Virus record (IMG/VR): IMGVR_UViG_2563366885_000004
Length of the DNA stretch: 15,471 bases
Direction: 5' to 3' (one strand)
Source of the DNA: a virus
Lineage: Duplodnaviria; Heunggongvirae; Uroviricota; Caudoviricetes
The notes under the pieces are model-generated. The model was not told the origin of the DNA and did not search any database. It saw only the letters and a list, made by a program, of their open reading frames with translations. Shown piece by piece: positions 1,240 through 15,471 of the stretch. A program made the position numbers and the translations under genes. Position 1 is the first letter of the stretch; the number at the start of each line of letters is the position of its first letter.

Positions 1240-1919
1240 CTGGCCTCCAGTTTCTGTTGTTCCTGCCCACTGACCGGGCGGTGCAGTCTGACGTTCTGCC
1301 CTTCACGAAACCCCGCATAGCGCGAGGCGTCGCCATTGCGGCTTCTTCCCGGTTTACGCGCCCTGGTGGTTTGCGTCTGCGGGTATTTATGTTCCAGCCA
1401 CTGCTGCATCAGTTCACGTTCGTCATCGGTCAAGGCGAAGGACTGTATTTCACTGATAACGGCCAGCACCCAGCCTTCAGCAAACTGGTCTCCACGGCTG
1501 GTGCGGGTGGCGGTTTTTATTCTTTTGTTCTGTGCACTGATATACTGCTGACGCGCCTTTTTCAGCTGACGGGCCAGCACTTCCCAGGTGTACGCGGCCA
1601 GTGCGGCCCGTTCCCGGTTGCCGTAGAACCCCACACCCGGATATGTGCCGGGGTGAATGATGGAGTTAACACCAAATGCCTCGCGGATGATGTTCATCAG
1701 GCCCAGCATGTAGCGCGGCGGACGGAGGCTGCCTGTCGGCCAGTAGTGACTGATGGTTTCATCAATATCACTCATGGCGATGTCGGAATGTGTGATGCCG
1801 TGAACATCCATCAGTTTACGGGCGCGGCGCAGTGCCAGAGCAGCCTCATTCGGGTTGCCGGATGCTGCCAGCGCCAGCAACTTTTTCAGTTTCTCAATGT
1901 GCTTATCCTGGTCTGTCAT
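1236..1919 (-). CDS. DUF2786-like phage protein (227 aa)
   Basis: N-terminal motif KLKKLLALAASGNPNEAALALRRARKLM resembles the DUF2786 signature as I recall it. ATGA overlap with the upstream gene at 1916..1919. Confidence 0.55.
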   Translation of the reverse strand: MTDQDKHIEKLKKLLALAASGNPNEAALALRRARKLMDVHGITHSDIAMSDIDETISHYWPTGSLRPPRYMLGLMNIIREAFGVNSIIHPGTYPGVGFYGNRERAALAAYTWEVLARQLKKARQQYISAQNKRIKTATRTSRGDQFAEGWVLAVISEIQSFALTDDERELMQQWLEHKYPQTQTTRARKPGRSRNGDASRYAGFREGQNVRLHRPVSGQEQQKLEAR

Positions 1920-2221
1920 TGTTCAGTATCTCCGGTGTACATGACGCCCAGCCGTGCGGCAAGGCGTTCCAGTTTTTTCTGTTTGTGGAAGTCAATCAGC
2001 CGGTCCATTCCCTGAAGGCGCAGCTGCTCTGTCATGATTTCCACGTCTGCCAGCTCTGCCGCGAGGTCACTTTCGCTGCCCTGTCCGTTCAGGTTGCGGG
2101 CGGCACTGGCCGCCAGTTCAGCAGCCTCTTCTGTCAGTTTCAGGGCCTGTGCATCCGGACCGAAACGCTGCAGGGCCAGACGGTAGAGGGCGGTGCGGGT
2201 GAGTTCGGTGTTCCGTGTCAT
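1916..2221 (-). CDS. Hypothetical early protein (101 aa)
   Basis: ORF in the operon chain; ATG confirmed at 2219..2221; acidic, helical-looking sequence. Confidence 0.5.
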   Translation of the reverse strand: MTRNTELTRTALYRLALQRFGPDAQALKLTEEAAELAASAARNLNGQGSESDLAAELADVEIMTEQLRLQGMDRLIDFHKQKKLERLAARLGVMYTGDTEQ

Positions 2222-2230
2222 GCCGCGCCC

Positions 2231-2503
2231 TCAGTGTTTCCGGTCGACGGTGATGTTCAGGCCGCCTTCTGCAGTGGTTTCCACCCGGTACGGCACCTCG
2301 TGCTCTGCCGTGTGGGTGAGTGTGTTCATCAGTACCTGCAGGGCAGCCGCCTTTCCGTTGGTTGCCACAATGGCCTGAGCGGCAATGCTGATTAACGCCG
2401 TCAGGACGTGCTTCACATCGGTGAGGTCGCGGCATTCACACTCGTTGACATAGTGTTCAACAAGGGTTCGGGTGCGCTGTCGTGCTTCCTGTGGGGTAAT
2501 CAT
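2231..2503 (-). CDS. Hypothetical early protein (90 aa)
   Basis: GGGAGG RBS 7 nt upstream of ATG at 2503; ATGA overlap with the upstream zinc-ribbon gene. Confidence 0.5.
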   Translation of the reverse strand: MITPQEARQRTRTLVEHYVNECECRDLTDVKHVLTALISIAAQAIVATNGKAAALQVLMNTLTHTAEHEVPYRVETTAEGGLNITVDRKH

Positions 2504-2694
2504 TGCGCGTCCTCCCTGTCAGGGCGGGAGAATTCCATGACGGGCACGTCCGCCGAAAAATGCTGGCTGCAGTACGGACAGACCAGGGTGACACGTACTG
2601 CAGGTACGTGGTACTTACCGGACATCACGGCGATGGCGCTGTGAAAACGCAGGGCTGTTATATCCCTCTCGCACTGAATACATTTAAATATCAT
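2500..2694 (-). CDS. Small zinc-ribbon protein (64 aa, CxxC ... CxxC)
   Basis: Two Cys pairs (CIQC and CPYC) in a 64-aa ORF. GAGGAG RBS upstream of ATG at 2694. Confidence 0.5.
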   Translation of the reverse strand: MIFKCIQCERDITALRFHSAIAVMSGKYHVPAVRVTLVCPYCSQHFSADVPVMEFSRPDREDAQ

Positions 2695-2791
2695 AATTTA
2701 ATTCTCCTCTGTTTCCGGCGTGCAGAAGCCCACGGCGCTGACGCCGGAATAAAAAAGAAAATGTTTTTATTAAATAATTAACGTGGTGTGT

Positions 2792-3322
2792 TTACTGCAC
2801 ATCCTGCTCAAAAGGAATTATTGAAAAATCCTCAATATCACTTTTTATGGTAATACCGGGAATATTTTTCACGGCGTCCTTTTCATTCAGGATAGCGTCT
2901 TTATTTATTTCCTCTTTTACACGAATAAAGCGCTCAAGCCCCAGACGTCTCAGTAATTCAATAACATTATCCGCCCCACGGATACTGACTGATGGCGGAC
3001 GGTTTCGTCACTGCACCTCGCCGGTGGTGAGGTTAGCGAACTTCACCTTCCCGTTGCCGGTCAGTTCATCACGGTGTGCCTCACACCATGTCTGAATACC
3101 GGACTGCAGTTCGGCCATGCGTTTTTTCAGGCTCTCGGTGAGCGGGGCATAACGTGCGGTGATATCGCCAATGGCGTCATTCATTTCTGTTTCAGCCCTG
3201 ACCAGTTCACGTTGTGCGTCACCGAGTAGTCTGATTCCCTCAATGACCTCTTCACGTGTCCCCGGCACCCAGAGTGCTGCTGCGGCCTTGATACGTTTTG
3301 CACCTTTTGTACTTTTTGCCAT
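2792..3322 (-). pseudogene. gam: Mu Gam-like host-nuclease inhibitor interrupted by one in-frame TGA at 3008..3010
   Basis: Translation of 3008..3322 closely matches the Mu Gam N-terminus (MAK..KRIKAAAA...ETEMNDAI...WCEA.RDELT). The same frame continues after the TGA (RNRPPSVSIRG ... GITIKSDIEDFSIIPFEQ) and matches the Mu Gam C-terminus to a TAA at 2792..2794. The TGA aligns with a Trp in Mu Gam as I recall it. Confidence 0.75.
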
Positions 3323-3349
3323 TTTTTATGATTTCTCCAGTTGTGCTGA

Positions 3350-3619
3350 TTACCACAAAGATTCCGGCCACACGACGCGACAGCCGTGCAGTTCGAAAAC
3401 GCCCTGACGGAAATATCCCCTGTGGTCATGTCCGGTATACAGATAACAGGCCTTTCCCTGCTCAAGCATGCGCATGCAATGCGCACTCCGGGAAACGCGG
3501 ATGACAGGTTTGTTACCCCTGATGGTGATGCTCTGTACATCCGTGTTCGTCGCCTTAAGCGCCATAATGGCTGACTGCACTTTGCTGATTTGCTGGTTGA
3601 TACCTGTGGTGGATTTCAT
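3350..3619 (-). CDS. Hypothetical early protein (89 aa) directly downstream of the B-like gene, where Mu has kil
   Basis: ORF starts 2 nt after the B-like stop. The kil analogy is by position only, not by sequence. Confidence 0.45.
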   Translation of the reverse strand: MKSTTGINQQISKVQSAIMALKATNTDVQSITIRGNKPVIRVSRSAHCMRMLEQGKACYLYTGHDHRGYFRQGVFELHGCRVVWPESLW

Positions 3620-3621
3620 TA

Positions 3622-4788
3622 TTAAACCCCTTTGACAACGTCAGCGTTGACCTGTGGAACCCCGATTTCAGCGGCCAGATTCATGGCGGCTATTACCAGG
3701 TTACTGACGGCCAGCGGATACAGCAGGCTGACCATATTTTTACGGTGACTTCCCGGATTGCTCAGGCGGGCACGTATGGCATCCACTGCACCGGCGTCCA
3801 TAATGTCCGTCAGCTGTTTACCGGCCCGTTGCAGTTTGAACGTCAGAAATTCTTCAAGGTTATTGTCCAGAGGCAGAAGTTCGACCACCTCACAGCGCTG
3901 AACGACTTCACGGACTTCCATATTGCGTTCAGACAGTTTTGTCGCCAGTTCCGGCTGGCCAATCAGCACGATGGACAGCAGTTTTTTGAAACCGGACTCC
4001 AGCTCAAAAAAGCGTTTGAGGTGTTTCAGTGTCGGAATGGGCAGACTGTGGGCCTCCTCAATCACCAGAACGTGGCTGAACCCCGCCTGGCTGCTGTCTT
4101 TCAGGACGCGATGCAACTGGCGAAAACGGGCGTCCTGACTGCGTCTGATGCTTTCCAGTGGTGCGATGGTACTGATAATGGCTTCGGCAATAGCTGCTGC
4201 CTTCAGGGTTTTCCCTTTCACATCGTTGTCTTCCATAGCGATGATGTATGGCTCGATAACAATTACCGGCGCATTCTCGCGGTTGATACGTTCAGTCAGG
4301 TCGCGGCGCAGCGTGGATTTACCCGCACCGGACTCACCGATGACGGCCATAAACCCACCATGACGGGCTGTCTGGTACAGCGCCTCACGCACGTAGCGAA
4401 TGTCCGGGGTGGTGAACACATCATCAGAACCCTGCATGGCTTCGTCGGCGAACGGGTCACGGAAAAGACCAAACGCTTTTTTGGTTGCTGGAAATAACAC
4501 CTGTTTTTTGAGTAACATATTCTCTTCCTCACTGAGGCTCGTTTTATCTGTGGTACCCGCTGTACGGGGCGTGGCCGCGCCCTGTACAGCATCAAAACTC
4601 TTCGTTGTATCAATCCCCTGACTTTCCAGCCAGGACGCAAGACGCCGGCGCACTTCTCCGGGGCTGGTGCGGGGCCACGCGTTATGATTCACAATCTGGG
4701 CCAGCGTGGCCTCAGAAACATCGACAGCTCTCGCCACCACCGCCTGTGGAATACGGGCCTCTTTCAGTTGCTGCTTCAGTACCAGCAT
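3622..4788 (-). CDS. Transposition/replication AAA+ ATPase (MuB-like, ExeA/TniB-like)
   Basis: N-terminal HTH region, Walker A VIGESGAGKST, Walker B-like VLVIEEAH and a VLIGQPEL motif. Lies directly downstream of the transposase. Start placed at ATG 4788 (GAGGAGG RBS) rather than the track start at 4827. Confidence 0.8.
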   Translation of the reverse strand: MLVLKQQLKEARIPQAVVARAVDVSEATLAQIVNHNAWPRTSPGEVRRRLASWLESQGIDTTKSFDAVQGAATPRTAGTTDKTSLSEEENMLLKKQVLFPATKKAFGLFRDPFADEAMQGSDDVFTTPDIRYVREALYQTARHGGFMAVIGESGAGKSTLRRDLTERINRENAPVIVIEPYIIAMEDNDVKGKTLKAAAIAEAIISTIAPLESIRRSQDARFRQLHRVLKDSSQAGFSHVLVIEEAHSLPIPTLKHLKRFFELESGFKKLLSIVLIGQPELATKLSERNMEVREVVQRCEVVELLPLDNNLEEFLTFKLQRAGKQLTDIMDAGAVDAIRARLSNPGSHRKNMVSLLYPLAVSNLVIAAMNLAAEIGVPQVNADVVKGV

Positions 4789-4798
4789 GTTTCCCTCC

Positions 4799-6568
4799 TC
4801 AGTTGCCGTTAACAATGCTGATAACACTGCTGCGGGCCGGTGTGGTCAGCGTGGCCATGACTTCATCCAGTGCGGCTTCCGGTACGCCGTCCGGGTACTG
4901 TGCCGTTAACTGGCGGTAATGTTCCGGCGTCCAGGTAAGGCCGTCGGCGCTGAACTTATCGCGCAGGGCTTTCGCGGCCTCCACATGAGTCATGGGACGT
5001 TGTTCAGTGCGCGGCCCGCGTACGTCAGAGGCCTGACCACGCTTCGGCATATAGGCCGGAAGTGTGGTGTCGTCGATATGTTTATACGGGTCAAGCCGCC
5101 CGCCGAACGGCAGCGCCTTCGCCTTGCGTGCGGCGGCTGCATCTGCGGCGTTGTCTGTACCGGTAACCAGCGCTTCGGTTTCTTTTGCCGCCATCTGTGC
5201 CGGGGTTTCCGGCAGGGCTTTGTAACTTTCGCCAAATACCGCCGCGCCTTCAGCAAAGCCAAACTCGTTCTTTCTGACCTCTTCGACCAGGAAGAACGTC
5301 TCGTGGCCGTCCTCACCGGTCAGAACCACCTGTGCCACATCGCTGCGCCATGGGTTACGGGTAATCATCAGTTTTTCACCAACCAGTACGCCCGGTACCG
5401 TTGATACGTCAAATTCAGTGCCCCGGAACGAGACACGAAGTTTTGGCGTGACTTTGCGGAGTTCTGGTGCCGCCACAGCCAGTTCACGACATACCTCAAC
5501 GGGAGGCGCTTTTTTCAGCTGCTCAGCAGTAATCTTCAGCCAGATATCCGTGCGGGTTTTACCGTGGCGGCTGTGAACAGCCGTGGCGTTAAAGTGGCTG
5601 CGCCATTTCGCGGCCAGCGCGTTGAGTTCTTCCAGACTGTGAACCGGCCGGAACTTCAGACCCGGCTCCAGCTTGCGTTCGATAATGTCCCGCGCCTTTT
5701 CCACCTGTCCGGTGGCGCGGGCGTTATGCGGCTTGTGCGCTATCAGGTCGATGCCCAGTGAGCGGCACATGTTTTTCGTCATACCCGCGGTGTTTGCCGA
5801 GCCGGGGTCGAGATAGAGTATTTTCGGCACGCCGTGCAGCACGTCTGCGCCGCCACGCTCCTGCATGGCGTTGATAAGCACAGAACACAGGTTCTCACCG
5901 GATTCCGCGCCCGTCACATACTCAACGTAAATCCAGCCGCTGGCATGGTCGGTAATCTCGTAACTCCACACGCGGTCACTGGCGATACGGGCAAGGTTAG
6001 CGGGCTTGTTCTTGTAGAACTTCGCGCTGTCCATCACCTGCAGCCCTTTATGTCCATTGCTCAGGTAGTAAAGCGTGCAGAGTGAGGCGTCAATCTGCCA
6101 GACATGATTGGGATGCAGACTGGCCACTTCGGTATGTGGTGCAGGGGCATCCAGTTGTTCCGGGTGCAGGCCATAGTTACGCAGAGCACGGCTGATGGCA
6201 TCTTCAGACAACGGGAAAAACTCACCGGTGGTTTCATCTGTTCTGCCTGCGGTGATAAAGCCGTTAGCCCGCAGGGTTTCCACTGCATCTGCGATGGAAT
6301 AGAGACGCTTACCGTTCTTGCGGGTGGCCTCACGCAGTGTGGCAGATATCAGCGCGGCTTCGTCGCGGGTCAGGGCGCTGCGCCCGGCATCGGCGCGTTT
6401 TTTGCGTTTATCAGTCACAGAGACCTCCTTCAGCCTGCGCAGCAGAGTGGCGCGGGACATGCCAAGTTCAGCACAGGCAGCGTCGTATATTGCACCGCGT
6501 TTACCATGCCCCGCGTCACGTGCCGCGCGGGCGACATAAACCAGTCGTTCAGTCAGGGCAGCATTCAT
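4799..6568 (-). CDS. DDE transposase (retroviral-integrase superfamily; resembles Tn552/TnsB/BcepMu TnpA type more than MuA)
   Basis: 589 aa with N-terminal HTH and candidate catalytic residues in HVWQIDAS, YLDPGSANT and QVEKARDIIE. GGAGG RBS upstream of ATG at 6568. Followed by the AAA+ ATPase partner gene. Confidence 0.85.
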   Translation of the reverse strand: MNAALTERLVYVARAARDAGHGKRGAIYDAACAELGMSRATLLRRLKEVSVTDKRKKRADAGRSALTRDEAALISATLREATRKNGKRLYSIADAVETLRANGFITAGRTDETTGEFFPLSEDAISRALRNYGLHPEQLDAPAPHTEVASLHPNHVWQIDASLCTLYYLSNGHKGLQVMDSAKFYKNKPANLARIASDRVWSYEITDHASGWIYVEYVTGAESGENLCSVLINAMQERGGADVLHGVPKILYLDPGSANTAGMTKNMCRSLGIDLIAHKPHNARATGQVEKARDIIERKLEPGLKFRPVHSLEELNALAAKWRSHFNATAVHSRHGKTRTDIWLKITAEQLKKAPPVEVCRELAVAAPELRKVTPKLRVSFRGTEFDVSTVPGVLVGEKLMITRNPWRSDVAQVVLTGEDGHETFFLVEEVRKNEFGFAEGAAVFGESYKALPETPAQMAAKETEALVTGTDNAADAAAARKAKALPFGGRLDPYKHIDDTTLPAYMPKRGQASDVRGPRTEQRPMTHVEAAKALRDKFSADGLTWTPEHYRQLTAQYPDGVPEAALDEVMATLTTPARSSVISIVNGN

Positions 6569-6571
6569 TGG

Positions 6572-7483
6572 TTATGCCTCCAGCCCGTTAATCTGTGGCG
6601 TCGGCTCAGTCAGCCATGAAGGCGCTGCATTGCCTGTTGGCTCGTCCGGCAGGTCAAATGTGGAGCGCAGGCTACGCGCTGTGCTTTCCAGTTGACAGAC
6701 CAGGCCTGCCATGAAGTCTCTGGGAGTATCAATCATGTTTTCAGCACAATATGCGCACAGTGTCTCAAAAGCGCTGGACAGTCGGACGGCGATAGCAGAT
6801 TCCGCCTCAACCGCTAATGCTGTCACTTCCGCCCGCAGCTTCTTAACCTCCTCATCAGGCTCAGGCGGCTGAATACGGGATTTCTTTTCCAGTCTGGTAG
6901 AGAGAGAATCAATTTTTTCATTTTTATCGGCGAGTACGCGCTGTTGTGCTGCGTTGGTTTCGCGCGCTTCGCGCAGGGCCTGGCGAAGTTCGCGTACTGA
7001 CATGCGATCAACGTCGTCAAGCGTCAGGCCGGCAACAGTGCCACCATCAGCCAGTTCGGCAAGGTTTTCATCGTCTTCCGTCATTAACTCGAATAATTTG
7101 GCTTTTCCTAAAAGCGCAAACGTCTGCGCTTTTGACTCAAGTTGTGGTGATAAATATTTTATTGATGCCTGCATCATTACCTGTGCAGTACGCTTTGACA
7201 TTGATAATTCAGACTCGACAATATTTATGAAATCACCATATGGTTCATTTTCTTTCAGTATTATCAGTCGTTTACCTGCCTCTAGCATGGCCTCAGCACT
7301 TTGTGCCATATAAAAGCGTGCTTCGTGAACAATGCGATCACGTTCATAAGGCAGACCATCGCCGAACTGCTGCATGATCTCCACGCGGTGTTGTGCCATG
7401 GTATTAAGACTGATGTTGAGATCATCAGACAGCGGCACCTCAGCATTCAGATCAGTGGACATTGGTGATTTGGTACGTCCCAT
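6572..7483 (-). CDS. Hypothetical coiled-coil protein (303 aa) between the ner-like gene and the transposase
   Basis: AAGGAG RBS 6 nt upstream of ATG at 7483. Central region is Glu/Lys/Arg/Ala-rich, consistent with coiled coil. No family recognised. Confidence 0.55.
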   Translation of the reverse strand: MGRTKSPMSTDLNAEVPLSDDLNISLNTMAQHRVEIMQQFGDGLPYERDRIVHEARFYMAQSAEAMLEAGKRLIILKENEPYGDFINIVESELSMSKRTAQVMMQASIKYLSPQLESKAQTFALLGKAKLFELMTEDDENLAELADGGTVAGLTLDDVDRMSVRELRQALREARETNAAQQRVLADKNEKIDSLSTRLEKKSRIQPPEPDEEVKKLRAEVTALAVEAESAIAVRLSSAFETLCAYCAENMIDTPRDFMAGLVCQLESTARSLRSTFDLPDEPTGNAAPSWLTEPTPQINGLEA

Positions 7484-7493
7484 TGATTACTCC

Positions 7494-7802
7494 TTATAAA
7501 CGACTACCTGAAATGACACGTTGGTTGATTTCGTTAATACGATCCTGCGCTCGTGCCATCTCGTTACTGTGAGCCATGGCGATCTGCAGTAACTGGATGC
7601 CCGGTGCAAAACGTCCATTCTCCAGTTTCAGGGCCAGCCCTTCTTCAATGAGGGTGTTGAGTGCCCGATTAATGTTTGCTGGTGACTCGTGCAGTGCTGC
7701 CGCCAGTTCACCGTTGGAGATACCGTTCAGAGCGTGGCCACGTAACGCCTTAAGAACACGCAAAATACGGGTACCTGCGCTTGATGTATTTGGTTTATTC
7801 AT
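7494..7802 (-). CDS. Small winged-HTH protein (IclR/MarR-like DNA-binding domain only, 102 aa)
   Basis: RILRVLKALRG...ISNGELAAAL..SPANINRALNTLIEEGLA resembles an IclR-type N-terminal wHTH. ATGA overlap with the ner-like stop. Confidence 0.5.
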   Translation of the reverse strand: MNKPNTSSAGTRILRVLKALRGHALNGISNGELAAALHESPANINRALNTLIEEGLALKLENGRFAPGIQLLQIAMAHSNEMARAQDRINEINQRVISGSRL

Positions 7803-8023
7803 GACACCTCCTTAAGGATACCGGGGGTAACTTCTTTACCTATTGCAACCGATAGATCTCGCAAAATCCGATAAGTCAAACGACCACGTGGTAGTTCACT
7901 TTTACCAGCCCAGCGACTGACTGCCTGTGTGACTGTTCGTGGCTCATAGCCTGCGTTAAGCGCGAACTGGCGCAAGCTACTGCCTCGTTCAACTAGTCGT
8001 GCCCGAACTTGTTGTTTATTCAT
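7799..8023 (-). CDS. ner: Ner-like DNA-binding protein (early negative regulator)
   Basis: 74 aa (Mu Ner is 75 aa). Core SLRQFALNAGYEPRTVTQAVSRW resembles Mu Ner LSALSRQFGYAPTTLANALERHW (from memory). First gene of the early operon, divergent from the repressor. Confidence 0.7.
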   Translation of the reverse strand: MNKQQVRARLVERGSSLRQFALNAGYEPRTVTQAVSRWAGKSELPRGRLTYRILRDLSVAIGKEVTPGILKEVS

Positions 8024-8111
8024 ATGCGGATAGTTCCAGTTGGGTTATCATGTACTCAATATGAATAAATGTACTTATTCAAAATAAATAAATCAAGTGG
8101 AATTACGCAAA
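8024..8111. promoter_or_regulatory. Divergent early/repressor control region with operator-like repeats
   Basis: 88-bp AT-rich spacer between the divergent ner-like and repressor genes. Inverted repeat TGAATAA-N6-TTATTCA at 8062..8081 and direct repeats TGTACTcAAT / TGTACTtATT at 8051..8060 and 8070..8079. Leftward candidate promoter TTGATT-17-TACATT on the minus strand. Confidence 0.5.
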
Positions 8112-8528
8112 ATGAATAACAAAGATGTTAACGCTGTGCTTTCCCGGTTAATGTCACTATTCCAAGCAGAGAATGATAGTGAGTTGGCAAGAGCGCTTAA
8201 CGTCAATAGGCAGACACTTGCAAGTTGGAGGAAGCGTGATTCTGTGCCTTATGCAATTTGCATAAACATCGCAGAAGAAAAGGGGGTTTCTTTAGATTGG
8301 TTGCTAACAGGTAGAAAACAAGGTTTATCAAAAGAAGTAGACGTAACTCCGACGCAAGTGCAGTTTAGCCAAGCTGACCTTACTATGCTTGAGCTTTTAA
8401 AGCAGCTAGACCCCGAGGTTCGTAACGATCTTCTGCGAGGCGCTGCGGAAAAACAGCGAGTGATCGAGATGGAAAAACAACTGAAGGAATTATCCGCAAC
8501 GATTGAGCGGTTAAAAAATGTGGGTTAA
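8112..8528 (+). CDS. Prophage repressor, CI-type HTH without a peptidase domain
   Basis: LARALNVNRQTLASWRKRDSVPYAICINIAEEKGVSLDWLLTG matches the phage CI-repressor HTH pattern. No S24 peptidase motifs. Divergent from the early operon. Track start is GTG 8097; ATG 8112 is an alternative. Confidence 0.75.
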   Translation: MNNKDVNAVLSRLMSLFQAENDSELARALNVNRQTLASWRKRDSVPYAICINIAEEKGVSLDWLLTGRKQGLSKEVDVTPTQVQFSQADLTMLELLKQLDPEVRNDLLRGAAEKQRVIEMEKQLKELSATIERLKNVG

Positions 8529-8650
8529 TCTATTCCCAATGAGAACAATTGACAAGGTTATCAAACCTCTTCGTTATATGCGCTGATTTAAACAGTAGGA
8601 TGTGCTGTTTGCACTAACCATCTGAACTTTCCGCGTTAAGGATTAATCGT

Positions 8651-9544
8651 ATGAGTGGTGATGTGAGAAATTATCGTATTGAGTTTCATCAGCTATCGTT
8701 TAAGGCCACAGATCAGCTGGCAAATCTCGGAGATGCTTTTCAATCTGTAATTGATAAACAGAGCCCTTCCTCTTCAAACCATGAGGGTTTTACTAGAGAA
8801 ATTTGGGGGTTGAAAAAACGCGCGGATGGTTCTTTTAGTGGAGAGTTGAGAAAATTTCGCAACTCGAACATTCCGGATAAAGGTGCACCAGGGAAACAGT
8901 CTACCCCTATTCCACTTGCCAAGGATGAAGGGATCATTGAGCGCAATTTCTTTGTATTCTATCCTCGAATCAATGTTATAGGTTGGCACTATAATCATAT
9001 GGCTTGTGGTATAAGCCGTTTTAGTGCATTTCTTTCAACTATCTTTGGTTCAAAGGTTAAGCCCGCACCTTTGCTGGAAAAAGATGCAATCGCTAGGCTT
9101 ATGAGAGGAGATGTCAAAATGAAAAAAATCCAGTTGACGATTCCTCGCCCCCGTAATCCTGAGTTTTACCCTGATACTGATTTCAGTCAAAAGACACTAC
9201 AACTGCTTGGTGATGCAGGTGCCGATACAATGCAAATTGTAATGGGGATTAATACTCGCCGTGGCGATAGTGATGGTAGGCTTAAGCAGAATATAAAATT
9301 TGCTATGCAAGAGTTAGTCGAGTTTGGGGCGAAAAAGGCTGTAATTGATGTGTTCGATGCTGATGGTGTTGTCCATCCTGTGGATTTGATTGCCGAGCGT
9401 ATTTCGTCCTATCAATCGGTAGTTACTGACGCTCGTTTCCCTCCAGCCGAAACCATGTACCGTCTAATCGATACTGCGTATGCTGAAAACCGGGAGAGTA
9501 TCAATGCATATATTGGAGAAGATGAACTCGGCCCTATTGCTTAG
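8651..9544 (+). CDS. Soluble 297-aa protein, candidate RexA-like component of a repressor-linked exclusion module
   Basis: AAGGA RBS upstream of ATG at 8651, same strand as and downstream of the repressor. Segment FFVFYPRINVIGW...ISRFSAFL...RLMRGDV resembles lambda RexA FLFVEGDTIGF...LTDFL...PLMRGTT, quoted from memory and unverified. Confidence 0.45.
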   Translation: MSGDVRNYRIEFHQLSFKATDQLANLGDAFQSVIDKQSPSSSNHEGFTREIWGLKKRADGSFSGELRKFRNSNIPDKGAPGKQSTPIPLAKDEGIIERNFFVFYPRINVIGWHYNHMACGISRFSAFLSTIFGSKVKPAPLLEKDAIARLMRGDVKMKKIQLTIPRPRNPEFYPDTDFSQKTLQLLGDAGADTMQIVMGINTRRGDSDGRLKQNIKFAMQELVEFGAKKAVIDVFDADGVVHPVDLIAERISSYQSVVTDARFPPAETMYRLIDTAYAENRESINAYIGEDELGPIA

Positions 9545-9941
9545 TTTATTGATTGGATGTGGGATTGGTTTTCTCTACTGGTTCAAGTTGCCCCATATGC
9601 CAGTAGCCGCAATCCCAAACTTCATGACTACATTGTCCAGTGTCTTTGCAACGTTGTTAGGTTTTATTATTACAGCAATTGCACTACTTGCATCATTGCT
9701 TGATAAACCGTTACTTAAAAACATGCAAAAAACCGGACATTACAAGCGTCTGATGACCGATGCATTCTACACTTGCTTAGTTTTGCTAGTGTTGGTGTTG
9801 ACATGTTTGATTGGGTTGATGCTGCAAAGTAAGCATCAAGAGATTGTAGCCGCTATTCTCATTGGGCTTGTTGTTATGTCTATGTTGTGTTTATTACAAA
9901 CAGGTAGGCGATTATTCAATATAATCAAAGTGATATCATAA
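9504..9941 (+). CDS. Four-TM membrane protein (about 145 aa), candidate RexB-like effector
   Basis: Four hydrophobic segments. Start at ATG 9504 (GGGAGAG RBS) overlaps the upstream gene's 3' end, indicating coupling. TTLSSVFATLLGFIITAIALL resembles lambda RexB ATLSSYAGTMIAILIAAL, from memory. Size is close to RexB (144 aa). Confidence 0.45.
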   Translation: MHILEKMNSALLLSLLIGCGIGFLYWFKLPHMPVAAIPNFMTTLSSVFATLLGFIITAIALLASLLDKPLLKNMQKTGHYKRLMTDAFYTCLVLLVLVLTCLIGLMLQSKHQEIVAAILIGLVVMSMLCLLQTGRRLFNIIKVIS

Positions 9942-9964
9942 CAATGCACCATCAGGTGCATTGT
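9941..9964. terminator. Perfect 10-bp stem / 4-nt loop hairpin between the convergent membrane-protein and dam genes
   Basis: ACAATGCACC-atca-GGTGCATTGT begins at the stop codon of the membrane-protein gene. No strong U-tract on the plus strand; moderately T-rich tail on the minus strand. Confidence 0.4.
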
Positions 9965-9993
9965 TATGCAAGACTACTTACCTCCTTCTGAGC

Positions 9994-10761
9994 CTACTCT
10001 AAATTACTTACAATAAGTTCGCGCCGTAGTGTTCCCTTTCCTGCAAGACTGTAGTTGACCTTCACACAGTGAATGTTCAGACCGTTAAAAACCTGCCGCA
10101 TTTCCGGGATATCGTTGACCGATATAATCATCTTTCCTCTGATGCACCGGGCCAGCTCTGCCAGCCGCGAGTAGTTCCCTTCAGGAAAATCCACACCATA
10201 GCCTTCCGTACCCAGGTACGGTGGGTCGCAGTAGAACAGCGTGTGCGGACGATCATAACGCTCAATGCACTGTTGCCAGTCCATGTGTTCTATGACTGTT
10301 CTGGAAAGCCGCAGGTGTGCCGCTGACAGTTCTTCTTCAATACGCAGCAGGTTGAAGCGTGGCGGGGATGTGGTGGAGGTACCGAAGCTGTGCTCTGCCA
10401 CCTTGCCGCCAAACGCCTGCTTCTGAAGGTAGTAAAACCGTGCCGCACGCTGGATATCCGTCAGTGTTTCTTCCGGGGTGATCTGCAGCCATTTGTAGAT
10501 CTGACGGCTGACCAGCGCCCATTTGAACTGGCGGACAAATTCTTCCAGGTGATGCTTTACCACCCGGTACAGATTCACCAGTTCACCGTTGATATCATTG
10601 ATGACTTCGATCTTGCCGGGTGTCTTAAGAAAATAGAGCGCTGCTGCCCCACAAAACGGCTCCACATAACATTCATGCGCCGGAAACAGCGGCAGAATGT
10701 GTTTTGCAAGGCGGCGTTTGCCACCAATCCACGGCACGATGGGTAATGTCTGCATTTTCAT
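9994..10761 (-). CDS. dam: DNA N6-adenine methyltransferase (Dam-like, DPPY motif)
   Basis: IVPWIGGKRRL N-terminus, FCGAAALYF (motif I-like) and FYCDPPYLGTEGY (DPPY catalytic motif). Track ORF extends to 10851, but the Dam-like N-terminus begins at the Met codons at 10761/10755. Confidence 0.85.
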   Translation of the reverse strand: MKMQTLPIVPWIGGKRRLAKHILPLFPAHECYVEPFCGAAALYFLKTPGKIEVINDINGELVNLYRVVKHHLEEFVRQFKWALVSRQIYKWLQITPEETLTDIQRAARFYYLQKQAFGGKVAEHSFGTSTTSPPRFNLLRIEEELSAAHLRLSRTVIEHMDWQQCIERYDRPHTLFYCDPPYLGTEGYGVDFPEGNYSRLAELARCIRGKMIISVNDIPEMRQVFNGLNIHCVKVNYSLAGKGTLRRELIVSNLE

Positions 10762-10865
10762 AATCTGTAAGCCTTTTACAATTATTAAAAAATATGGCAG
10801 TCTGGTCAGGTCTCGCGAGACTGACTGAACCTTGGTCGGCTCACAGCGCATTCCTGTGGGGCGAT

Positions 10866-10907
10866 GACCAGCCCGGCTTTCGGGTGCCGGGCTGGTCGTT
10901 CTTTCAT
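10866..10907 (+). terminator. GC-rich hairpin followed by a T-rich tract (terminator-like) in noncoding DNA
   Basis: GACCAGCCCGG-ctttcgggtg-CCGGGCTGGTC at 10866..10897, then GTTCTTTCAT. No plus-strand gene is evident upstream, so its function is uncertain. Confidence 0.3.
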
Positions 10908-10951
10908 GATGCGGCAGGGATGGCGGGATTTCTGTTAATGTGGTTTAGGGA

Positions 10952-11167
10952 TTATCCGGGGCGATTTTCTGACCTTATCCGGTCCAGGGCATAAGTAATA
11001 CCTTCTGCAAAAACAGAAGTATCAAACTGCTTTTGTATTCCCTGAAAATGAAAAGCGGCACGACAGACACTCAGTTCTCCGCGGTATAACCGGATAATAT
11101 CTTCCAGAACATTGTTCACTGCTTCAGCACGGCGCTGATGTTCTGTTAACGTTAATCGGGGATTCAT
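10952..11167 (-). CDS. Hypothetical 71-aa protein
   Basis: Strong AAGGAG RBS with 6-nt spacer upstream of the ATG (complement of 11165..11167). No family recognised. Confidence 0.5.
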   Translation of the reverse strand: MNPRLTLTEHQRRAEAVNNVLEDIIRLYRGELSVCRAAFHFQGIQKQFDTSVFAEGITYALDRIRSENRPG

Positions 11168-11570
11168 GATGCACTCCTTAAATGATGATTTTTATGTACT
11201 CACCGGCAAAATATTCTGCCGATTACTGAACACGCATCCGGCACCTCAGGTTTTGATTTATTCTGGTTTTTTCGATATCCCGGACCAGGTTGATCACGAC
11301 CAGAAAAAGTGCCGGTGTTTTATTGATACGCTGATATGGCTTCGGGATAACAGCTATATTCGTTACTCTCAGTTGCTGGCTGTGGGAGCGGCTGATGTCG
11401 TCCTCACGGAAAAAACGCTCTGTCTGCTCAATGCCATGCCGACCTTTCTGCAGCCCCGGCCCGTACCATTTAAAGAGTCACTTCTGGATGCAGTAAAAAC
11501 CGGTGAAAATGCAGTCATCGCTGAATGCGTATCCCGGATTATGCGTTACGTGTTTAATGAACGTAAGTGA
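11166..11570 (+). CDS. Hypothetical 134-aa protein (possible degenerate receiver-like fold; speculative)
   Basis: Codon usage looks host-like (CTG, CCG, GGC third positions). Weak GGGGA RBS. Its start codon overlaps the start codon of the divergent 71-aa gene. It fills an otherwise 378-bp noncoding gap. Confidence 0.4.
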   Translation: MMHSLNDDFYVLTGKIFCRLLNTHPAPQVLIYSGFFDIPDQVDHDQKKCRCFIDTLIWLRDNSYIRYSQLLAVGAADVVLTEKTLCLLNAMPTFLQPRPVPFKESLLDAVKTGENAVIAECVSRIMRYVFNERK

Positions 11571-12274
11571 GGTTTATCCGCTGTCTGCATAATCCCGATA
11601 GCCAGTGCGAGGGGAAGTAATTCCGGGGAAACTCTTTCAAACAGCGATGCCCATTCTCCTCTCGCCATCACTCTGTCCAGCCCGCCCCCCAACTGCATTT
11701 CAGCAATCTTCCTGATTTCCCGGAACAACGCCGCTTTGATCTCTTCATGCTCAGCTTTATTTTCCGGTGTCAGAAGGTATTCGTCGAAGAACCGGGGAGG
11801 CTGGTTAATCGGGATGTGTTCCTGTTTGCCGTACTTCGGGGACGAACAACATTCTGTTGACTGACCAGTGAGTTTACGTAACTCCTTCATGAGCAGCTCC
11901 TGATCGTAAACTGTCATCAGTGCCGCAATGGTGGCATGCAGTGCATCGGGCAGTATCCAGGGTTGCCGGCCCGTGGGGCATATAACATCCAGCAGCTCAT
12001 TCGTCCGACAGATACGCTCCTCGCCGTATGACAACAGGCCCTGTCCCGTGTATTCCTCCAGCCTGATCACTGTGCCAGCCCGTGGTTTCTGCCATGTGCT
12101 CAGATCATCCCCACTCATACGGCGCTCACCGTCCACGTCTGCGGCGTCGACAATGACGCTGTTTCCGAATTCCTGTTTCACCACTTCCTCTATCCGCGCC
12201 AATATGTAACTTTTACCGCTGCCCACAGGACCGGACACGGTGACAGTGATGACCGGATTCAGTGTCTGCGTCAT
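11546..12274 (-). CDS. P-loop NTPase (Walker A GPVGSGKS) with an uncharacterised C-terminal domain, 242 aa
   Basis: AGAGGAG RBS 8 nt upstream of ATG at 12274. Walker A sits at residues 15-22 within a compact N-terminal domain. The C-terminal roughly 150 aa match no family I recognise. Confidence 0.65.
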   Translation of the reverse strand: MTQTLNPVITVTVSGPVGSGKSYILARIEEVVKQEFGNSVIVDAADVDGERRMSGDDLSTWQKPRAGTVIRLEEYTGQGLLSYGEERICRTNELLDVICPTGRQPWILPDALHATIAALMTVYDQELLMKELRKLTGQSTECCSSPKYGKQEHIPINQPPRFFDEYLLTPENKAEHEEIKAALFREIRKIAEMQLGGGLDRVMARGEWASLFERVSPELLPLALAIGIMQTADKPHLRSLNT

Positions 12275-12404
12275 ATCGTATTCTCCTCTGTGAATAATTC
12301 ATCGTTTATCCTGCACATCCCGTATCCCCGGCTCTCTTAACGCGCTTTAAAATCCTTCGCGCCCTGTATTTGTGATGCTGTCTCCACCAGATAAGGAGAC
12401 ACAC

Positions 12405-12755
12405 ATGAAAAACCTGAAAAAATTCATTCCCCCTGTTAAAAAACCTCGCCTCAGCGGCTGGCTGCTGACCTCAGTGCTGTTGCTGGGCACCATCGCTCTG
12501 GTCTCACCACAGCAGCTGCCTGTTGTGATCTACAAGCTGGCACTCATCACGCTGGCAGCAGTGCTGGGTTACTGGCTTGACCGTTCGCTCTTCCCCAAAG
12601 CCCGTCCTGGTCAGTACCTGAAACATGACGACAGGCTGATGGCTGAAGGGCGTTTCCCGGTACAGACCGGCCTTCACCTGGTGTTTTCTGCTGCGTTAAT
12701 TCGCCGTGCACTGATTGTTGCAGCGGTCTGCCTGGCTGTTGCGATGGGGCTTTAA
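12405..12755 (+). CDS. Putative holin or lysis-associated membrane protein (116 aa, about 3 TM)
   Basis: AAGGAG RBS upstream of ATG at 12405. Three hydrophobic segments. Lies immediately upstream of, and coupled to, the endolysin gene (stop 12753..12755, next ATG at 12758). Confidence 0.5.
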   Translation: MKNLKKFIPPVKKPRLSGWLLTSVLLLGTIALVSPQQLPVVIYKLALITLAAVLGYWLDRSLFPKARPGQYLKHDDRLMAEGRFPVQTGLHLVFSAALIRRALIVAAVCLAVAMGL

Positions 12756-12757
12756 TC

Positions 12758-13498
12758 ATGAACTGGCCGCAGATCACCTGGATTGTATGCATGTCCCTGA
12801 AACTGGCTTTCGAAGCCTTTCGGGTCTTCATCAGAACCGAACGCCCGTCAGTCCGCGCCGGGACCTTTCTGGTTCATATGGCATGGGTATTCTTTGTCGC
12901 AATGTTGCTCTGGTGTGGCGGCTTTTTCAGCCAGGCATGCGCAGCACAACCTCCGCAGGCTGCGCTGCAGTATCGCGATGATGTGATCCGTAATGCCCGG
13001 CTTGAATGGGGACTGTCTGCGCCGGTGGCCGATTTCGCCGCGCAACTGCATCAGGAAAGCGGCTGGCGACCTGATGCGATCTCGCCGGCTGGCGCTCAGG
13101 GACTGGCGCAGTTCATGCCTGCCACTGCCGACTGGATAAGCCAGTTGATACCGATGCTGAGCAGTCGTGAGCCGTTTAATCCGGCATGGGCTATCCGGGC
13201 GCTGGTCAGCTATGACCGCTGGCTGTGGCAGCGTGTCAGCGCCGCCAGTGACTGCGAGCGTATGGCCATGACACTGTCGGGCTATAACGGTGGTCTGGGC
13301 TGGGTACAACGGGACAGGCGGCTTGCATCACAGAAAGGTCTGGACAGCACCCGCTGGTTCGGACATGTCGCCACGGTGAATGCCGGACGCAATGCGGCCA
13401 GCTGGCGGGAGAACCGCCATTATCCGCAGCGCATCCTGCGCGAACTGGCACCGCGATATCTCACATGGGGAGGCAGCAGTTGTGTGGCATCTGGTTAA
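12758..13498 (+). CDS. Endolysin, lytic transglycosylase (SLT domain)
   Basis: Motif QESGWRPDAISPAGAQGLAQFMPATA fits the SLT catalytic Glu-Ser region. A hydrophobic segment MAWVFFVAMLLWCGGFF precedes the domain (alternative start at 12878). Confidence 0.8.
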   Translation: MNWPQITWIVCMSLKLAFEAFRVFIRTERPSVRAGTFLVHMAWVFFVAMLLWCGGFFSQACAAQPPQAALQYRDDVIRNARLEWGLSAPVADFAAQLHQESGWRPDAISPAGAQGLAQFMPATADWISQLIPMLSSREPFNPAWAIRALVSYDRWLWQRVSAASDCERMAMTLSGYNGGLGWVQRDRRLASQKGLDSTRWFGHVATVNAGRNAASWRENRHYPQRILRELAPRYLTWGGSSCVASG

Positions 13499-14132
13499 AA
13501 AGCTGCCGTGGCGCGGCATTCTGCTGGCCATTCTTATCAATGCCTTTCTGGTCGGCCTGTATGCCATGGGATACAGAAGTGGTCATGACTCTGCAAAGCG
13601 TGACGGTGATACCGCGCTCAGTCAGTTGCAGTCAGCATTTGACGCGTACAAAACGGAGCAGGCAACGCTTGAGAATGCTGCGCTGCGGGCCTGGGCCAGA
13701 CGGTATCAGGAGCAGGTGGCCGCCGGGCAGCGGGCTGAAGCCGGTTATCTTGAGCAGATTGCTCAACTGGAGAGCCGGAATAAACAACTACAGGGGCAAA
13801 TTAACGATGTCACACAGCGCTGGATTGATGAAAAAGGTAAGAGCCATCCCATTGAGTGCGTGTTTACTCGCGGTTTCGTGCGCCAGTACAACGCCGCACT
13901 CGGATATGACAACGCATCCGTCGACACCGGTCATTCAGACTCAGTTGCCGCCGCTGGCACCCGCTCTGGCACAGCGACCGGGCAACCTGAAACCACTGAC
14001 ACCCGGTTACGCGATTCGGGTGTCTCCCAGCGTGACGTTCTCGCCAACATCATCGACAACGCAGGACAATGTCGTCGCTGGCGGAACCAGATAAACGCGT
14101 TACTGGATGAACGGGAAGGATTACAGAAATGA
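13482..14132 (+). CDS. Rz-like i-spanin (type II membrane protein with coiled-coil periplasmic domain)
   Basis: GTG start at 13482 with a GGGGAGG RBS, overlapping the endolysin stop. N-terminal TM segment LPWRGILLAILINAFLVGLYAM, followed by a Gln/Ala/Glu-rich helical region. Confidence 0.6.
   Translation: MWHLVKKLPWRGILLAILINAFLVGLYAMGYRSGHDSAKRDGDTALSQLQSAFDAYKTEQATLENAALRAWARRYQEQVAAGQRAEAGYLEQIAQLESRNKQLQGQINDVTQRWIDEKGKSHPIECVFTRGFVRQYNAALGYDNASVDTGHSDSVAAAGTRSGTATGQPETTDTRLRDSGVSQRDVLANIIDNAGQCRRWRNQINALLDEREGLQK
13828..14094 (+). CDS. Rz1-like o-spanin lipoprotein embedded in the +1 frame of Rz
   Basis: MKKVRAIPLSACLLAVSC signal-like N-terminus with Cys, followed by a Pro-rich mature region (TPVIQTQLPPLAPALAQRPGNLKPLTPG). 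Lies wholly inside the Rz gene. Alternative ATG at 13807. Confidence 0.45.
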   Translation: MKKVRAIPLSACLLAVSCASTTPHSDMTTHPSTPVIQTQLPPLAPALAQRPGNLKPLTPGYAIRVSPSVTFSPTSSTTQDNVVAGGTR

Positions 14133-14455
14133 CACTGCAGGTTGAATTCTGGACGGTGGTGAGTTTTCTGCTCACCTTCATGGGGTTTGTGGGAGGGCTC
14201 GCCAAATGGTTGTTCAGTAAAACAGAAGAACGCCAGGCGGCACGATTCGCCTCCCTTGAACAGGCCCTGCAACAATCCGCCTCCAACTGGGGCGAGCTGG
14301 AAAAAGAATTTATGCGATTTAAAGCGGATTTACCGCTGAATTATGTCCGTCGAGAGGATTATATCCGTGGCCAGACAGTCATTGAGGCCAAACTGGACGC
14401 GCTTTATAACAAACTGGAAGTGGTACAGCAGTACCGCAATACCGGAGGTCAATAA
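14129..14455 (+). CDS. Late-operon membrane protein (N-terminal TM plus coiled coil; Mu gp25-position)
   Basis: ATGA overlap with the Rz stop. GGAAGGA RBS. TM segment VVSFLLTFMGFVGGLAKWLF. Confidence 0.5.
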   Translation: MTLQVEFWTVVSFLLTFMGFVGGLAKWLFSKTEERQAARFASLEQALQQSASNWGELEKEFMRFKADLPLNYVRREDYIRGQTVIEAKLDALYNKLEVVQQYRNTGGQ

Positions 14456-14766
14456 TGGTCGATATTACCCGGGTACGCCGCGAATCCCTGCGCTGGAGTC
14501 TGCTGGTTGCCCTGAACAAGACCCGCCCTTACACCGCCAGCGAGACGCTGCTGCTGGATGTGTCCCGTGCCATCTACCCGGACACCACACCGCTGGAACT
14601 GCGACGCGAACTGGATTATCTGGCTGACCGTAAAATGGTTGATCTGGAGAAAAAACCTTCTGGCGACTGGTTTGCTGACCTGACCCGCCTCGGCGTAGAC
14701 CTGGTGGAATACACCGTGGAATGTGGTCCGGGTATTGCCCGCCCGGAAAAGTACTGGAGTGAATAA
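14455..14766 (+). CDS. Late-operon protein (Mu gp26-position), 103 aa
   Basis: GGAGG RBS. TAATG overlap with the upstream stop. No family recognised. Confidence 0.5.
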   Translation: MVDITRVRRESLRWSLLVALNKTRPYTASETLLLDVSRAIYPDTTPLELRRELDYLADRKMVDLEKKPSGDWFADLTRLGVDLVEYTVECGPGIARPEKYWSE

Positions 14767-15195
14767 TGGCCAGACGCAGCACAATAGAAAAGCTGCCGGA
14801 AGATGTGCGCCGCTGGCTTGAACGGGCGCTGACTGAATCCGGCTTCAGCGGGTATAACGAGCTGGAGTCCCTGCTGCGTGAGCGGGGGTACGTCATCAGC
14901 AAATCCGCTATCCATCGCTATGGACAGAAGATTGAGCGCCGCTATGGTGCTATCCGTGCGGCAACAGAAGCGGCCCGCATGCTGACCGAAGGCGCAGCAG
15001 ACGATCAGGATGCGCGTTCGGAGGCTGTGATAGCCCTTATTCAGACCGAGCTGTTCGAGAGTATTGTCCAGTTGCAGGAGGCGGAAGAAGGCGAAGTCGA
15101 TCCTAAAGAACGCGTGGCCCTGCTGTCGAAGGTGGCGAAGAATGTGGCTACGCTGTCCCGCGCGTCCGTCAACCTCAAAAAGTTCCAGTCTGAAG

Positions 15196-15471
<276 letters not shown>

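Follow-up and report, generated by a model that had tools for sequence, protein, structure and literature searches.

Why should the lysogeny-control genes of a transposable prophage be so much poorer in guanine plus cytosine (GC) than the genes around them, and does such a stretch record the arrival of foreign DNA in a single event? The question is raised by a 15,471-nucleotide (nt) DNA of a tailed phage (IMG/VR record IMGVR_UViG_2563366885_000004; this whole stretch is called the window here), which comes from a BcepMu-like prophage of Escherichia coli. Its positions 8040-9990 hold a control region, a repressor gene and a cassette of two genes, and the initial annotation, made from the sequence alone, took them for an AT-rich immunity and exclusion module acquired as a unit from a phage lineage of lower GC content. 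We put the probability at about three in four that the stretch is instead a hypervariable slot for lysogeny control and cargo in BcepMu-like E. coli prophages, one that is mosaic, carries a Rex-like cargo in the window and shares its AT bias with the alleles that replace it in other strains. The slot would lie between the leftward early (transposition) operon and the Dam and lysis genes, and related prophages would exchange it by homologous recombination at conserved flanks. The features on which the argument turns are as follows.

7799-8023, minus strand: Ner/Cro-like small helix-turn-helix (HTH) protein of 74 residues (phrog_8503, weak HTH_35; GC at third codon positions, GC3, 0.36)
8024-8111: divergent control region between the Ner-like gene and the repressor, 29.5% GC
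8112-8528, plus strand: prophage repressor with a CI-type HTH domain (PF07022, 1.2e-17) and matches to PHROG transcriptional repressor families; start as in RefSeq
8529-8650, plus strand: repressor-cassette spacer of 122 nt, with no terminator and no significant RNA structure (z -0.67)
8651-9544, plus strand: orf297, a divergent member of DUF6731 whose fold is of the RexA/RdgC type (split globular domain and four-stranded dimerization domain)
9504-9941, plus strand: partner membrane protein of 145 residues with four predicted transmembrane helices (hydropathy; phrog_8552)
9937-9968: hairpin between the convergent membrane and Dam genes, 14-bp stem, 4-nt loop, free energy -21.7 kcal/mol, z -5.2
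9994-10140, minus strand: 3' end of dam (gene 9994-10761; PF02086), which travels with the island

A low-GC slot on a conserved backbone

The island is real. The GC content of 8040-9990 is 41.1% compared with 53.8% for the remaining window; of all 1951-nt windows, just 0.2% have a lower value (minimum at 8004-9954) and non-overlapping control windows span 0.50-0.57, so that the AT-rich island first recognized by eye is borne out as the lowest stretch of that length. Codon usage is strongly deviant as well. The GC3 values of the Ner-like gene (0.36), the repressor (0.41), orf297 (0.36) and the membrane gene (0.40-0.43) are set against a median of 0.60 for the 24 other genes (0.35-0.43 in the four island genes; Mann-Whitney p=6e-4), and the synonymous-codon chi-square of island genes versus backbone is 269 (41 degrees of freedom), whereas 300 random sets of four backbone genes gave a mean of 45 and a maximum of 93. 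CTG is the codon for 9% of island leucines and for 61% of those encoded in the backbone. These figures also bear on whether low GC is simply a by-product of amino-acid composition, that is, of an Ile/Leu/Phe-rich membrane protein and Lys/Asn-rich regulators. The membrane gene does have the lowest GC at first and second codon positions in the window (GC1 0.40, GC2 0.33). However, GC3, which depends little on amino-acid content, is depressed, and codon choice within amino acids differs, and on these two tests amino-acid composition was rejected as the main cause; we give it almost no weight.

The limits of the island need revision. Penalised likelihood segmentation divides the window into 1-7060 (54.8% GC), 7061-10140 (43.0%) and 10141-15471 (54.1%), and change-point scans resolve the low-GC segment into two tiers, ∼48% over 7061-8005 and ∼40-42% over 8005-10135, with a steep inner step near 8005 where GC drops from 0.48-0.51 to 0.40. 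The core proposed initially therefore stands, but the low-GC domain is wider than proposed and extends over ∼7061-10140. It was also thought to end at the hairpin, whereas the right GC step lies at ∼10020-10135, 50-170 bp beyond it and within the 3' end of the Dam gene. Flanks in the mid-to-high 50s, as described by eye, are found for the transposase and most early and lysis genes but not for the immediate flanks (the DUF3102, IclR-HTH and Dam genes, ∼50-52% GC) or for several early and lysis genes (∼50%).

Comparison with related prophages indicates how the island is distributed. The backbone over 6000-12400 matches 637 of 5426 complete E. coli genomes, of which only 23 cover at least 80% of the region; the island itself (8024-9993) is complete in exactly 23 genomes, always at 99.7% identity or more. 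In another 19 genomes the match is limited to 172 bp in the 3' part of the repressor gene (86-87% identity). In Escherichia phage PhiKM the island is replaced between a transposase block that is 98.8% identical to the window and a block, extending from dam across the lysis genes, that is 99.0% identical. Similarity stops on the left at 7802 (types B, C and D and PhiKM) or at 8060 (type E and KP12), and it resumes on the right at 10037 or 10070, but at 11810 in type D. Because similarity stops and resumes at these discrete points, beside flanks that are 98.8-99.0% identical in PhiKM, the alignments identify the island as a recombinationally exchanged module, present or absent on a conserved backbone. 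PhiKM and the count of 23 versus 637 genomes bear out the expectation that the immunity module would be swapped while the transposition and lysis genes are conserved. The left exchange flank would be either the junction between the IclR-HTH and Ner-like genes or the left half of the control region, and the right flank the dam 3' end. The Ner-like gene, the first gene of the leftward early operon, is part of the sequence exchanged when the window is compared with most of its E. coli relatives (breakpoint 7802/7803), and the right-hand breakpoints by blastn and alignment are 10036/10037, 10069/10070 and ∼10100-10150. The alleles found at the slot are listed below with the length replaced and its GC content.

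Alleles B (USVAST219), C (ST131) and PhiKM: a different 62-residue DNA-binding protein, no cargo, and in B and C additionally a different HTH repressor of 112-118 residues; ∼840 bp, 44-46% GC
Allele D (UPEC129): another repressor and proteins of 328 and 193 residues of unknown function; 2452 bp, 43% GC
Allele E (TUM13754): Ner-like homologue (∼92% DNA identity), different repressor, NA37 nucleoid-associated protein and a 401-residue protein; 2813 bp, 41% GC
Allele KP12: Ner-like homologue (∼86% DNA identity), repressor and a 177-residue protein; 1157 bp, 43% GC
Window allele: Ner-like gene, CI-type repressor and two-gene cassette; 2234 bp (7803-10036), 42% GC

The literature search returned nothing specific on immunity-region variation in BcepMu-like prophages of E. 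coli, and a hypervariable cargo slot is delineated here in a very common prophage family, found in ∼12% of complete genomes including ST131. For annotation, the low-GC dip is a reliable flag of an exchangeable immunity and cargo slot, and the candidate defence cargo in it varies from strain to strain.

Some of these other cargos deserve description. In E. coli TUM13754 (L007, positions 2691-4906) a nucleoid-associated protein of the NA37/YejK type (PF04245, 1e-80) is followed by the 401-residue protein, which at its C-terminus has a weak match (E 8e-5) to the Kiwa defence membrane protein KwaA. The two form a further pair of a DNA-binding protein and a membrane protein behind a repressor, present in ∼19 genomes. 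The 328- and 193-residue proteins of UPEC129 (L006, 2656-4314) and the 177-residue protein of KP12 (L003, 8446-8979) likewise lie behind the repressor; they have no Pfam or PADLOC match and are candidates for lysogenic-conversion or defence genes of unknown kind.

Mosaic structure and AT bias

Entry of the whole island (control region, repressor and cassette) in one recombination, from a lower-GC phage lineage or host, would account for the 12-13 GC points by which the island lies under the backbone and for its different codon usage, and the rarity of the island (23 of 637 genomes) and its near invariance fit a recent single origin within E. coli. We nevertheless consider such an event improbable. 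The similarity of its sub-blocks differs in KP12, in type E and in a prophage of Limnobaculum eriocheiris (L014). KP12 and type E match the window through the Ner-like gene and the left control region up to 8060, and beyond that point they match only the repressor C-terminus (8282/8391-8547, 78% identical). The Limnobaculum prophage has a backbone 80-93% identical to that of the window. Over 7001-8400, which includes the N-terminal half of the DUF3102 gene, the IclR-HTH and Ner-like genes, the operators and the repressor N-terminus, it is 67-83% identical (67-76% for the repressor N-terminus and operators), whereas from ∼8450 to ∼10100 it is 94-98% identical. On the alignments, this contrast means that two diverged prophage lineages have recently traded, independently of the part that determines specificity, a block made up of the repressor C-terminus, the cassette and the 3' end of dam.

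The cassette also occurs without this repressor. It adjoins the gene for antiterminator Q in lambdoid prophages of Scandinavium, Enterobacter, Kosakonia and Rouxiella, it is part of a CbtA/CbeA-RadC-antirestriction island in Citrobacter, and in a BcepMu-like prophage of Serratia nevei it is found on the opposite side of dam. DNA similarity to the Citrobacter copy is limited to 8660-9824, which corresponds to the two cassette genes. Both the block-wise identities with L014, KP12 and type E and the free-standing cassette speak against the proposal that the island was acquired as a unit from a single donor.

A further joint lies within the repressor gene. Its 3' part (8376-8547) is 78-87% identical across immunity types with different N-terminal HTH families, PF07022 in the window and HTH_3 in type E and KP12, and the differing N-terminal families joined to a common C-terminal part imply domain shuffling. 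Sequence comparison gives separate histories to the Ner-like gene, to the repressor N-terminus with the operators, to the repressor C-terminus and to the cassette. At least three pieces would be exchanged independently: the Ner-like gene with the left operators, the repressor N-terminus with the right operators, and the repressor C-terminus with the cassette. AT-rich mosaic immunity and moron regions are well known in temperate phages, and for this reason the AT-rich island is ordinary phage mosaicism.

The DUF3102/IclR-HTH region right of 7061 forms the moderately AT-rich outer tier. The DUF3102 and IclR-HTH genes (6560-7802) are 78% identical to those of ST131-type and PhiKM prophages between flanks of 98-99%, with no alignment to these prophages over 6560-6681, and 7001-7800 is just 74-79% identical to the Limnobaculum prophage. 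It appears that these early regulatory genes make up another module of exchange.

If the island is a mosaic, its low GC content still has to be accounted for. Each of the six alternative alleles at the slot has a GC content of 41-46%, on a backbone of 52-55%. The relatives closest to the cassette, at 97% and 80% amino-acid identity, belong to BcepMu-like prophages whose backbone is equally GC-rich, and the Limnobaculum copy shows the same GC dip. Cassette GC is below its surroundings in 10 of 12 other contexts measured, as follows.

Limnobaculum and Serratia BcepMu-like prophages (L014, L015): cassette or gene 0.44, locus 0.54-0.55
Lambdoid prophages (L008, L009, L016-L018): cassette or gene 0.41-0.42, locus 0.47-0.50
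Alloalcanivorax (L019): cassette or gene 0.526, locus 0.627
Lysobacterales metagenome-assembled genome (L020): cassette or gene 0.546, locus 0.592
Pseudomonas phage AUS531phi (L021): cassette or gene 0.52-0.54, locus 0.572
Citrobacter island (L010, L011, L012): cassette or gene 0.484, locus 0.484, 0.414 and 0.526

The exceptions are two of the Citrobacter island copies, in which the cassette equals the locus (L010) or exceeds it (L011). In lambda the rexB-rexA-cI block is 42.3% GC and the genome 49.9%. Low GC with deviant codons is therefore a class property of the slot alleles, of most cassette copies and of lambda cI-rexAB, since the alternative alleles, the cassette elsewhere and the lambda block all dip; it is not the signature of a low-GC donor. 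The derivation from a lower-GC phage lineage is left without support on the same grounds, namely that every slot allele is AT-rich, that the nearest relatives sit on a GC-rich backbone and that lambda dips alike. Single entry of the whole island is further opposed by the way in which the cassette tracks host GC, at a level mostly a few points short of the DNA around it. A low-GC donor cannot be read from the low GC of a phage module, since every allele in the accessory pool has the bias.

The bias may stem from a shared mobile gene pool, from relaxed codon selection or from selection for AT-rich DNA. The last of these would make AT-richness functional, kept in every allele for the binding of nucleoid proteins (H-NS, IHF, Fis), for promoter melting or for low expression of toxic genes. 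Control of the Mu early region by H-NS and IHF and xenogeneic silencing of AT-rich accessory genes are both established and lend this explanation some general support, as do the control region (29.5% GC), the similar pattern in lambda and the fact that the slot alleles are AT-rich regardless of gene content. However, GC3 is low even through 1.3 kb of coding sequence, beyond regulatory DNA, and the cassette reaches 52-55% GC in high-GC contexts, so that a low absolute GC is not needed. We regard functional selection as a minority possibility, more credible than single entry of the island from a low-GC donor, and retain AT bias as a property common to the genes that occupy the slot.

The repressor and the cassette behind it

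The control region contains three operator-like direct repeats, TAYTCAAWATRAATAA (16-18-nt motif), at 8053, 8076 and 8104. Only 0.03 chance matches are expected, for a pattern that was derived from these same copies. Related control-region sequence is found in the Limnobaculum and Serratia prophages, and KP12 and type E diverge after 8060. The repressor HTH occupies residues 13-74 of the 143-residue open reading frame that starts at GTG 8097; an S24 peptidase domain was not detected with Pfam. A consensus scan of 7700-10300 found no plus-strand sigma-70 promoter and no intrinsic terminator, and an Rfam search of the window found no RNA family. Read-through from the repressor promoter into the cassette is plausible, because the spacer between them has neither a terminator nor significant structure. 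Unlike lambda, which has a second operator set of the OL type, the window offers for this role only a fourth match to the operator-like motif at 9913-9928 (two mismatches, 1.8 kb off). It was treated as coincidental because it lies in LFNII codons of the membrane gene and two of its positions differ in the Limnobaculum prophage.

On sequence alone orf297 has no match in Pfam, PADLOC or the PDB, and the cassette falls only into PHROG families of unknown function. A deep orf297 profile gave weak matches to eIF2-alpha in the PDB, which were taken as spurious. The protein is nevertheless assigned to DUF6731 by homology: proteins above the PF20505 threshold align with 97% of its length at 44-47% identity, yet orf297 itself falls below the HMMER reporting filters. 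Its match to one of these, P0007, has an E-value of 2e-80 (phmmer-based), and P0007 scores 53.5 bits against PF20505 (cut-off 27 bits). The family profile collects 1051 representatives of 50%-identity clusters (E≤1e-3); ten clusters sampled for names included Acinetobacter, Shewanella, Vibrio, Pseudoalteromonas and Thiococcus and no Pseudomonas putida. DUF6731 is a family without an assigned function and is mentioned in no paper of the searched literature.

Structure prediction is more informative. The AlphaFold2 model of orf297 (predicted local distance difference test score, pLDDT, 75.6; predicted template-modelling score, pTM, 0.74) has the globular domain split by a four-stranded dimerization domain that characterizes the RexA fold, and its order of strands and helices is that published for lambda RexA, in which an N-terminal beta-sheet domain is followed by a four-stranded alpha/beta insertion and a return to the first domain (PMC11077077). 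In a Foldseek search of 350,542 chains with the orf297 model, 8twq came first (E 8.9e-8) and RdgC second, and RexA was the top structural match by two methods. A Foldseek search of BFVD viral predicted structures returned only uncharacterised gut-phage proteins; lambda RexA was unlisted there and the search was uninformative for naming. E. coli RdgC itself differs in being a chromosomal housekeeping protein with no membrane partner and with an extra tip domain, and no sequence similarity to it was detected.

The second cassette gene overlaps orf297 by 41 nt. RefSeq gives a shorter coding sequence (9597-9941), a truncated version of 114 residues that lacks the first transmembrane helix; the start is most likely at 9504, because homologues are 145 residues long and begin with M(R/H)ILE, and the PHROG match agrees. 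Conserved or invariant motifs are ATLLGFIIT and TGHY. The AlphaFold2 secondary structure consists of four long helices, at low confidence, and the hydropathy scan that predicts four segments in this protein gives 4-5 in RexB. In its length of 145 residues, its four segments and its position directly after a RexA-like gene, the protein has a RexB-like architecture. It follows the DUF6731 gene at every locus examined, down to 32% identity, and the strict pairing of DUF6731 with a four-transmembrane protein of ∼145 residues holds across the gammaproteobacteria: the cassette is intact in all seven species that the genome scan found, as it is in the elements of Scandinavium and Citrobacter and in Pseudomonas phage AUS531phi. 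The hairpin that follows has no T-tract and was not called an intrinsic terminator by the consensus scan; it looks like a bidirectional terminator, though one without a U-tract.

The arrangement recalls cI-rexA-rexB of lambda. In both, a divergent Cro/Ner-like gene, operators and the repressor are followed in the same order by a cytoplasmic protein of ∼280-300 residues and a four-transmembrane protein of ∼140-145 residues, and both regions are AT-rich dips (42.3 versus 49.9% in lambda, 41 versus 54% in the window). The window differs in that its pair matches no RexA or RexB model (PF15969, PF15968 or PADLOC), in that its cassette genes overlap, in that its repressor has no detected S24 peptidase domain and in that the phage is a transposable BcepMu-like myovirus rather than lambdoid. 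In the window the cassette adjoins the repressor in the same orientation with no terminator between them, and a cassette directly 3' of a co-oriented CI-type repressor is found in three unrelated temperate phages: the BcepMu-like phage of the window, an Alloalcanivorax prophage and the siphovirus-like Pseudomonas phage AUS531phi. The Alloalcanivorax repressor has HTH and S24 peptidase domains, and the annotation of AUS531phi names a Cro/CI regulator and an HTH-XRE antirepressor; each of these two phages has a divergent Cro-like gene opposite its repressor. It is because the cassette has been captured behind CI-type repressors in unrelated phages that we rate a RexAB-type exclusion system, by analogy, as its most likely function, with odds slightly better than even. 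The label RexAB-like in the initial annotation was apt for fold and layout and not for sequence family; since no sequence model matched, the cassette is not filed in the RexA or RexB families.

Other functions were considered. The cassette might be a toxin-antitoxin-like addiction pair, a superinfection-exclusion pair that blocks DNA entry, or a modulator of the lysis-lysogeny decision only. Such roles are suggested by the failure to match RexA, RexB or any PADLOC model, by the CbtA/CbeA toxin-antitoxin genes adjoining the Citrobacter cassette, by the ability of RexA itself to modulate the lambda switch independently of RexB (PMC11077077) and by the Butters system, in which the roles of the two proteins are reversed (PMC12894663). 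We think them unlikely, in view of the structural match to RexA by two methods, the strict pairing with a membrane protein of defined size, the repeated capture behind CI repressors and the experimental demonstration that a comparable pair defends against phage. A RexAB pair has been described in P. putida prophage P1 (RexABpp, PP_5643/PP_5644; Sci Rep 2026, PMC12894663). It differs from the window cassette in that two extra genes separate it from its repressor and in that its published HHpred probability to RexA is 98%, versus 42% by hhalign for DUF6731. Mosaic immunity modules and morons (lambdoid imm regions, and the hot spots for accessory or defence genes of P2/P4, Mu-like and other prophages) offer a broader parallel, being discrete, polymorphic low-GC blocks with conserved flanks, accessory genes and a terminal hairpin. 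The window has the strong downstream hairpin, without a T-tract, and no plus-strand sigma-70 match upstream. It differs from morons in joining the immunity switch with cargo, with no dedicated cargo promoter detected, and in having its recombination joints inside genes (the repressor and the dam 3' end).

Several observations weigh against the reading of the island as an immunity slot with a Rex-like cargo. The RexA models (PF15969, PADLOC) find nothing in orf297 at E≤0.1 and the RexB models (PF15968, PADLOC) match neither the window membrane protein nor 15 homologues, whereas lambda RexA and RexB, taken as positive controls, matched the PADLOC models at 9e-110 and 8.6e-61. Profile comparison of 136 DUF6731 with 23 RexA sequences by hhalign gave a probability of 42% (E 2.6e-4), which is only suggestive; it aligns 215 colinear columns covering both proteins, and shallower profiles gave 3-8%. 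The membrane protein compares with RexB at an hhalign probability of 1.6% and without significance by BLASTP, and its AlphaFold2 model (pLDDT 62, pTM 0.45) is too poor for fold comparison. The global template-modelling score of the orf297 model to RexA is low (0.38-0.41), which we attribute to a different predicted orientation between domains; large domain movements of RexA have been argued (PMC11077077). In several hosts the cassette does not adjoin a repressor. No promoter was detected for it in the window and we only infer its co-transcription with the repressor, and the prophage looks defective, with an internal stop in Gam and an insertion sequence (IS), so that expression of the cassette is uncertain.

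In a lysogen the cassette would probably be transcribed with the repressor. By analogy with RexA, the DUF6731 protein may be a DNA-binding homodimer that acts as a sensor and activates the membrane effector, which would depolarise or arrest the superinfected cell in an exclusion of the RexAB type. The pair may belong to a large, unnamed RexAB-type branch of at least 1051 50%-identity clusters in Gammaproteobacteria, missed by the PADLOC 2.0 and Pfam models for RexA and RexB, repeatedly captured behind repressors and traded among Mu-like prophages independently of immunity specificity, a proposal to which we give even odds. Trading as a defence cassette is suggested because the block is 94-98% identical in two lineages with backbones of 80-90%. 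The analysis adds a structure-based assignment of the uncharacterised DUF6731 and four-transmembrane pair to the RexAB type. It would give DUF6731 a testable function in phage defence, add a Mu-like phage to the short list of RexAB-type carriers and provide a relative native to E. coli for dissecting the dialogue between a RexA-fold sensor and its membrane partner.

The host prophage and its other variable regions

Positions 1-15196 of the window are 100% identical to E. coli chromosomes, and the element or its close relatives are present in 724 of 5426 complete E. coli genomes. In E. coli FDAARGOS_1258 the matching region is annotated in RefSeq as a prophage with the following genes.

Minus strand: Mor, gp16/GemA, a Gam pseudogene, ExeA, DDE integrase-type transposase, DUF3102 and an HTH protein
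Plus strand: HTH repressor, then two hypothetical genes
Beyond the two hypothetical genes: dam, three hypothetical genes, holin, SLT transglycosylase and lipoprotein genes

The nearest isolated phage is PhiKM (97% identity over 79% of the window), and because it is classified in Bcepmuvirus the window is, by sequence, the early, immunity and lysis end of a BcepMu-like transposable prophage. It has the layout of that genus, with a leftward early operon (DDE transposase, ExeA/MuB-like ATPase, Gam, GemA and Mor) and rightward lysis and late genes.

The copy in the window looks damaged. The gene for the Gam host-nuclease inhibitor (2792-3322, minus strand) has an in-frame stop at codon 105 and is a RefSeq pseudogene in the identical prophage. 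Prophage homology ends at 15196, inside a DUF3486 (terminase-small-subunit-like) gene, and the final 275 bp (15197-15471) begin with TGTCAACGCC and contain repeated CGCCATTT motifs. A junction query (14900-15471) gave many additional matches (121 on plasmids, and as many as 12 in one genome), consistent with an IS end, and an IS21-like IS100 element lies in this region in a related genome. The prophage copy was probably disrupted by an IS insertion, and together with the Gam stop this suggests a defective prophage.

A second variable slot lies between dam and the holin gene (10907-12333, 44-53% GC) and holds the genes hyp71 and hyp134 and a gene for a 242-residue protein with weak P-loop matches. 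These genes are replaced by 33 bp in the Limnobaculum prophage, and KP12 and the retrieved portion of the type E locus lack counterparts of them; type D and E. coli JB2 have a gene annotated as an ABC transporter ATPase in this region. A further GC dip (42%) at 2601-3000 covers an intergenic region and the Gam 3' end, and to the left of this dip (window 1935-2600) PhiKM has ∼220 bp of extra sequence and two different small open reading frames.

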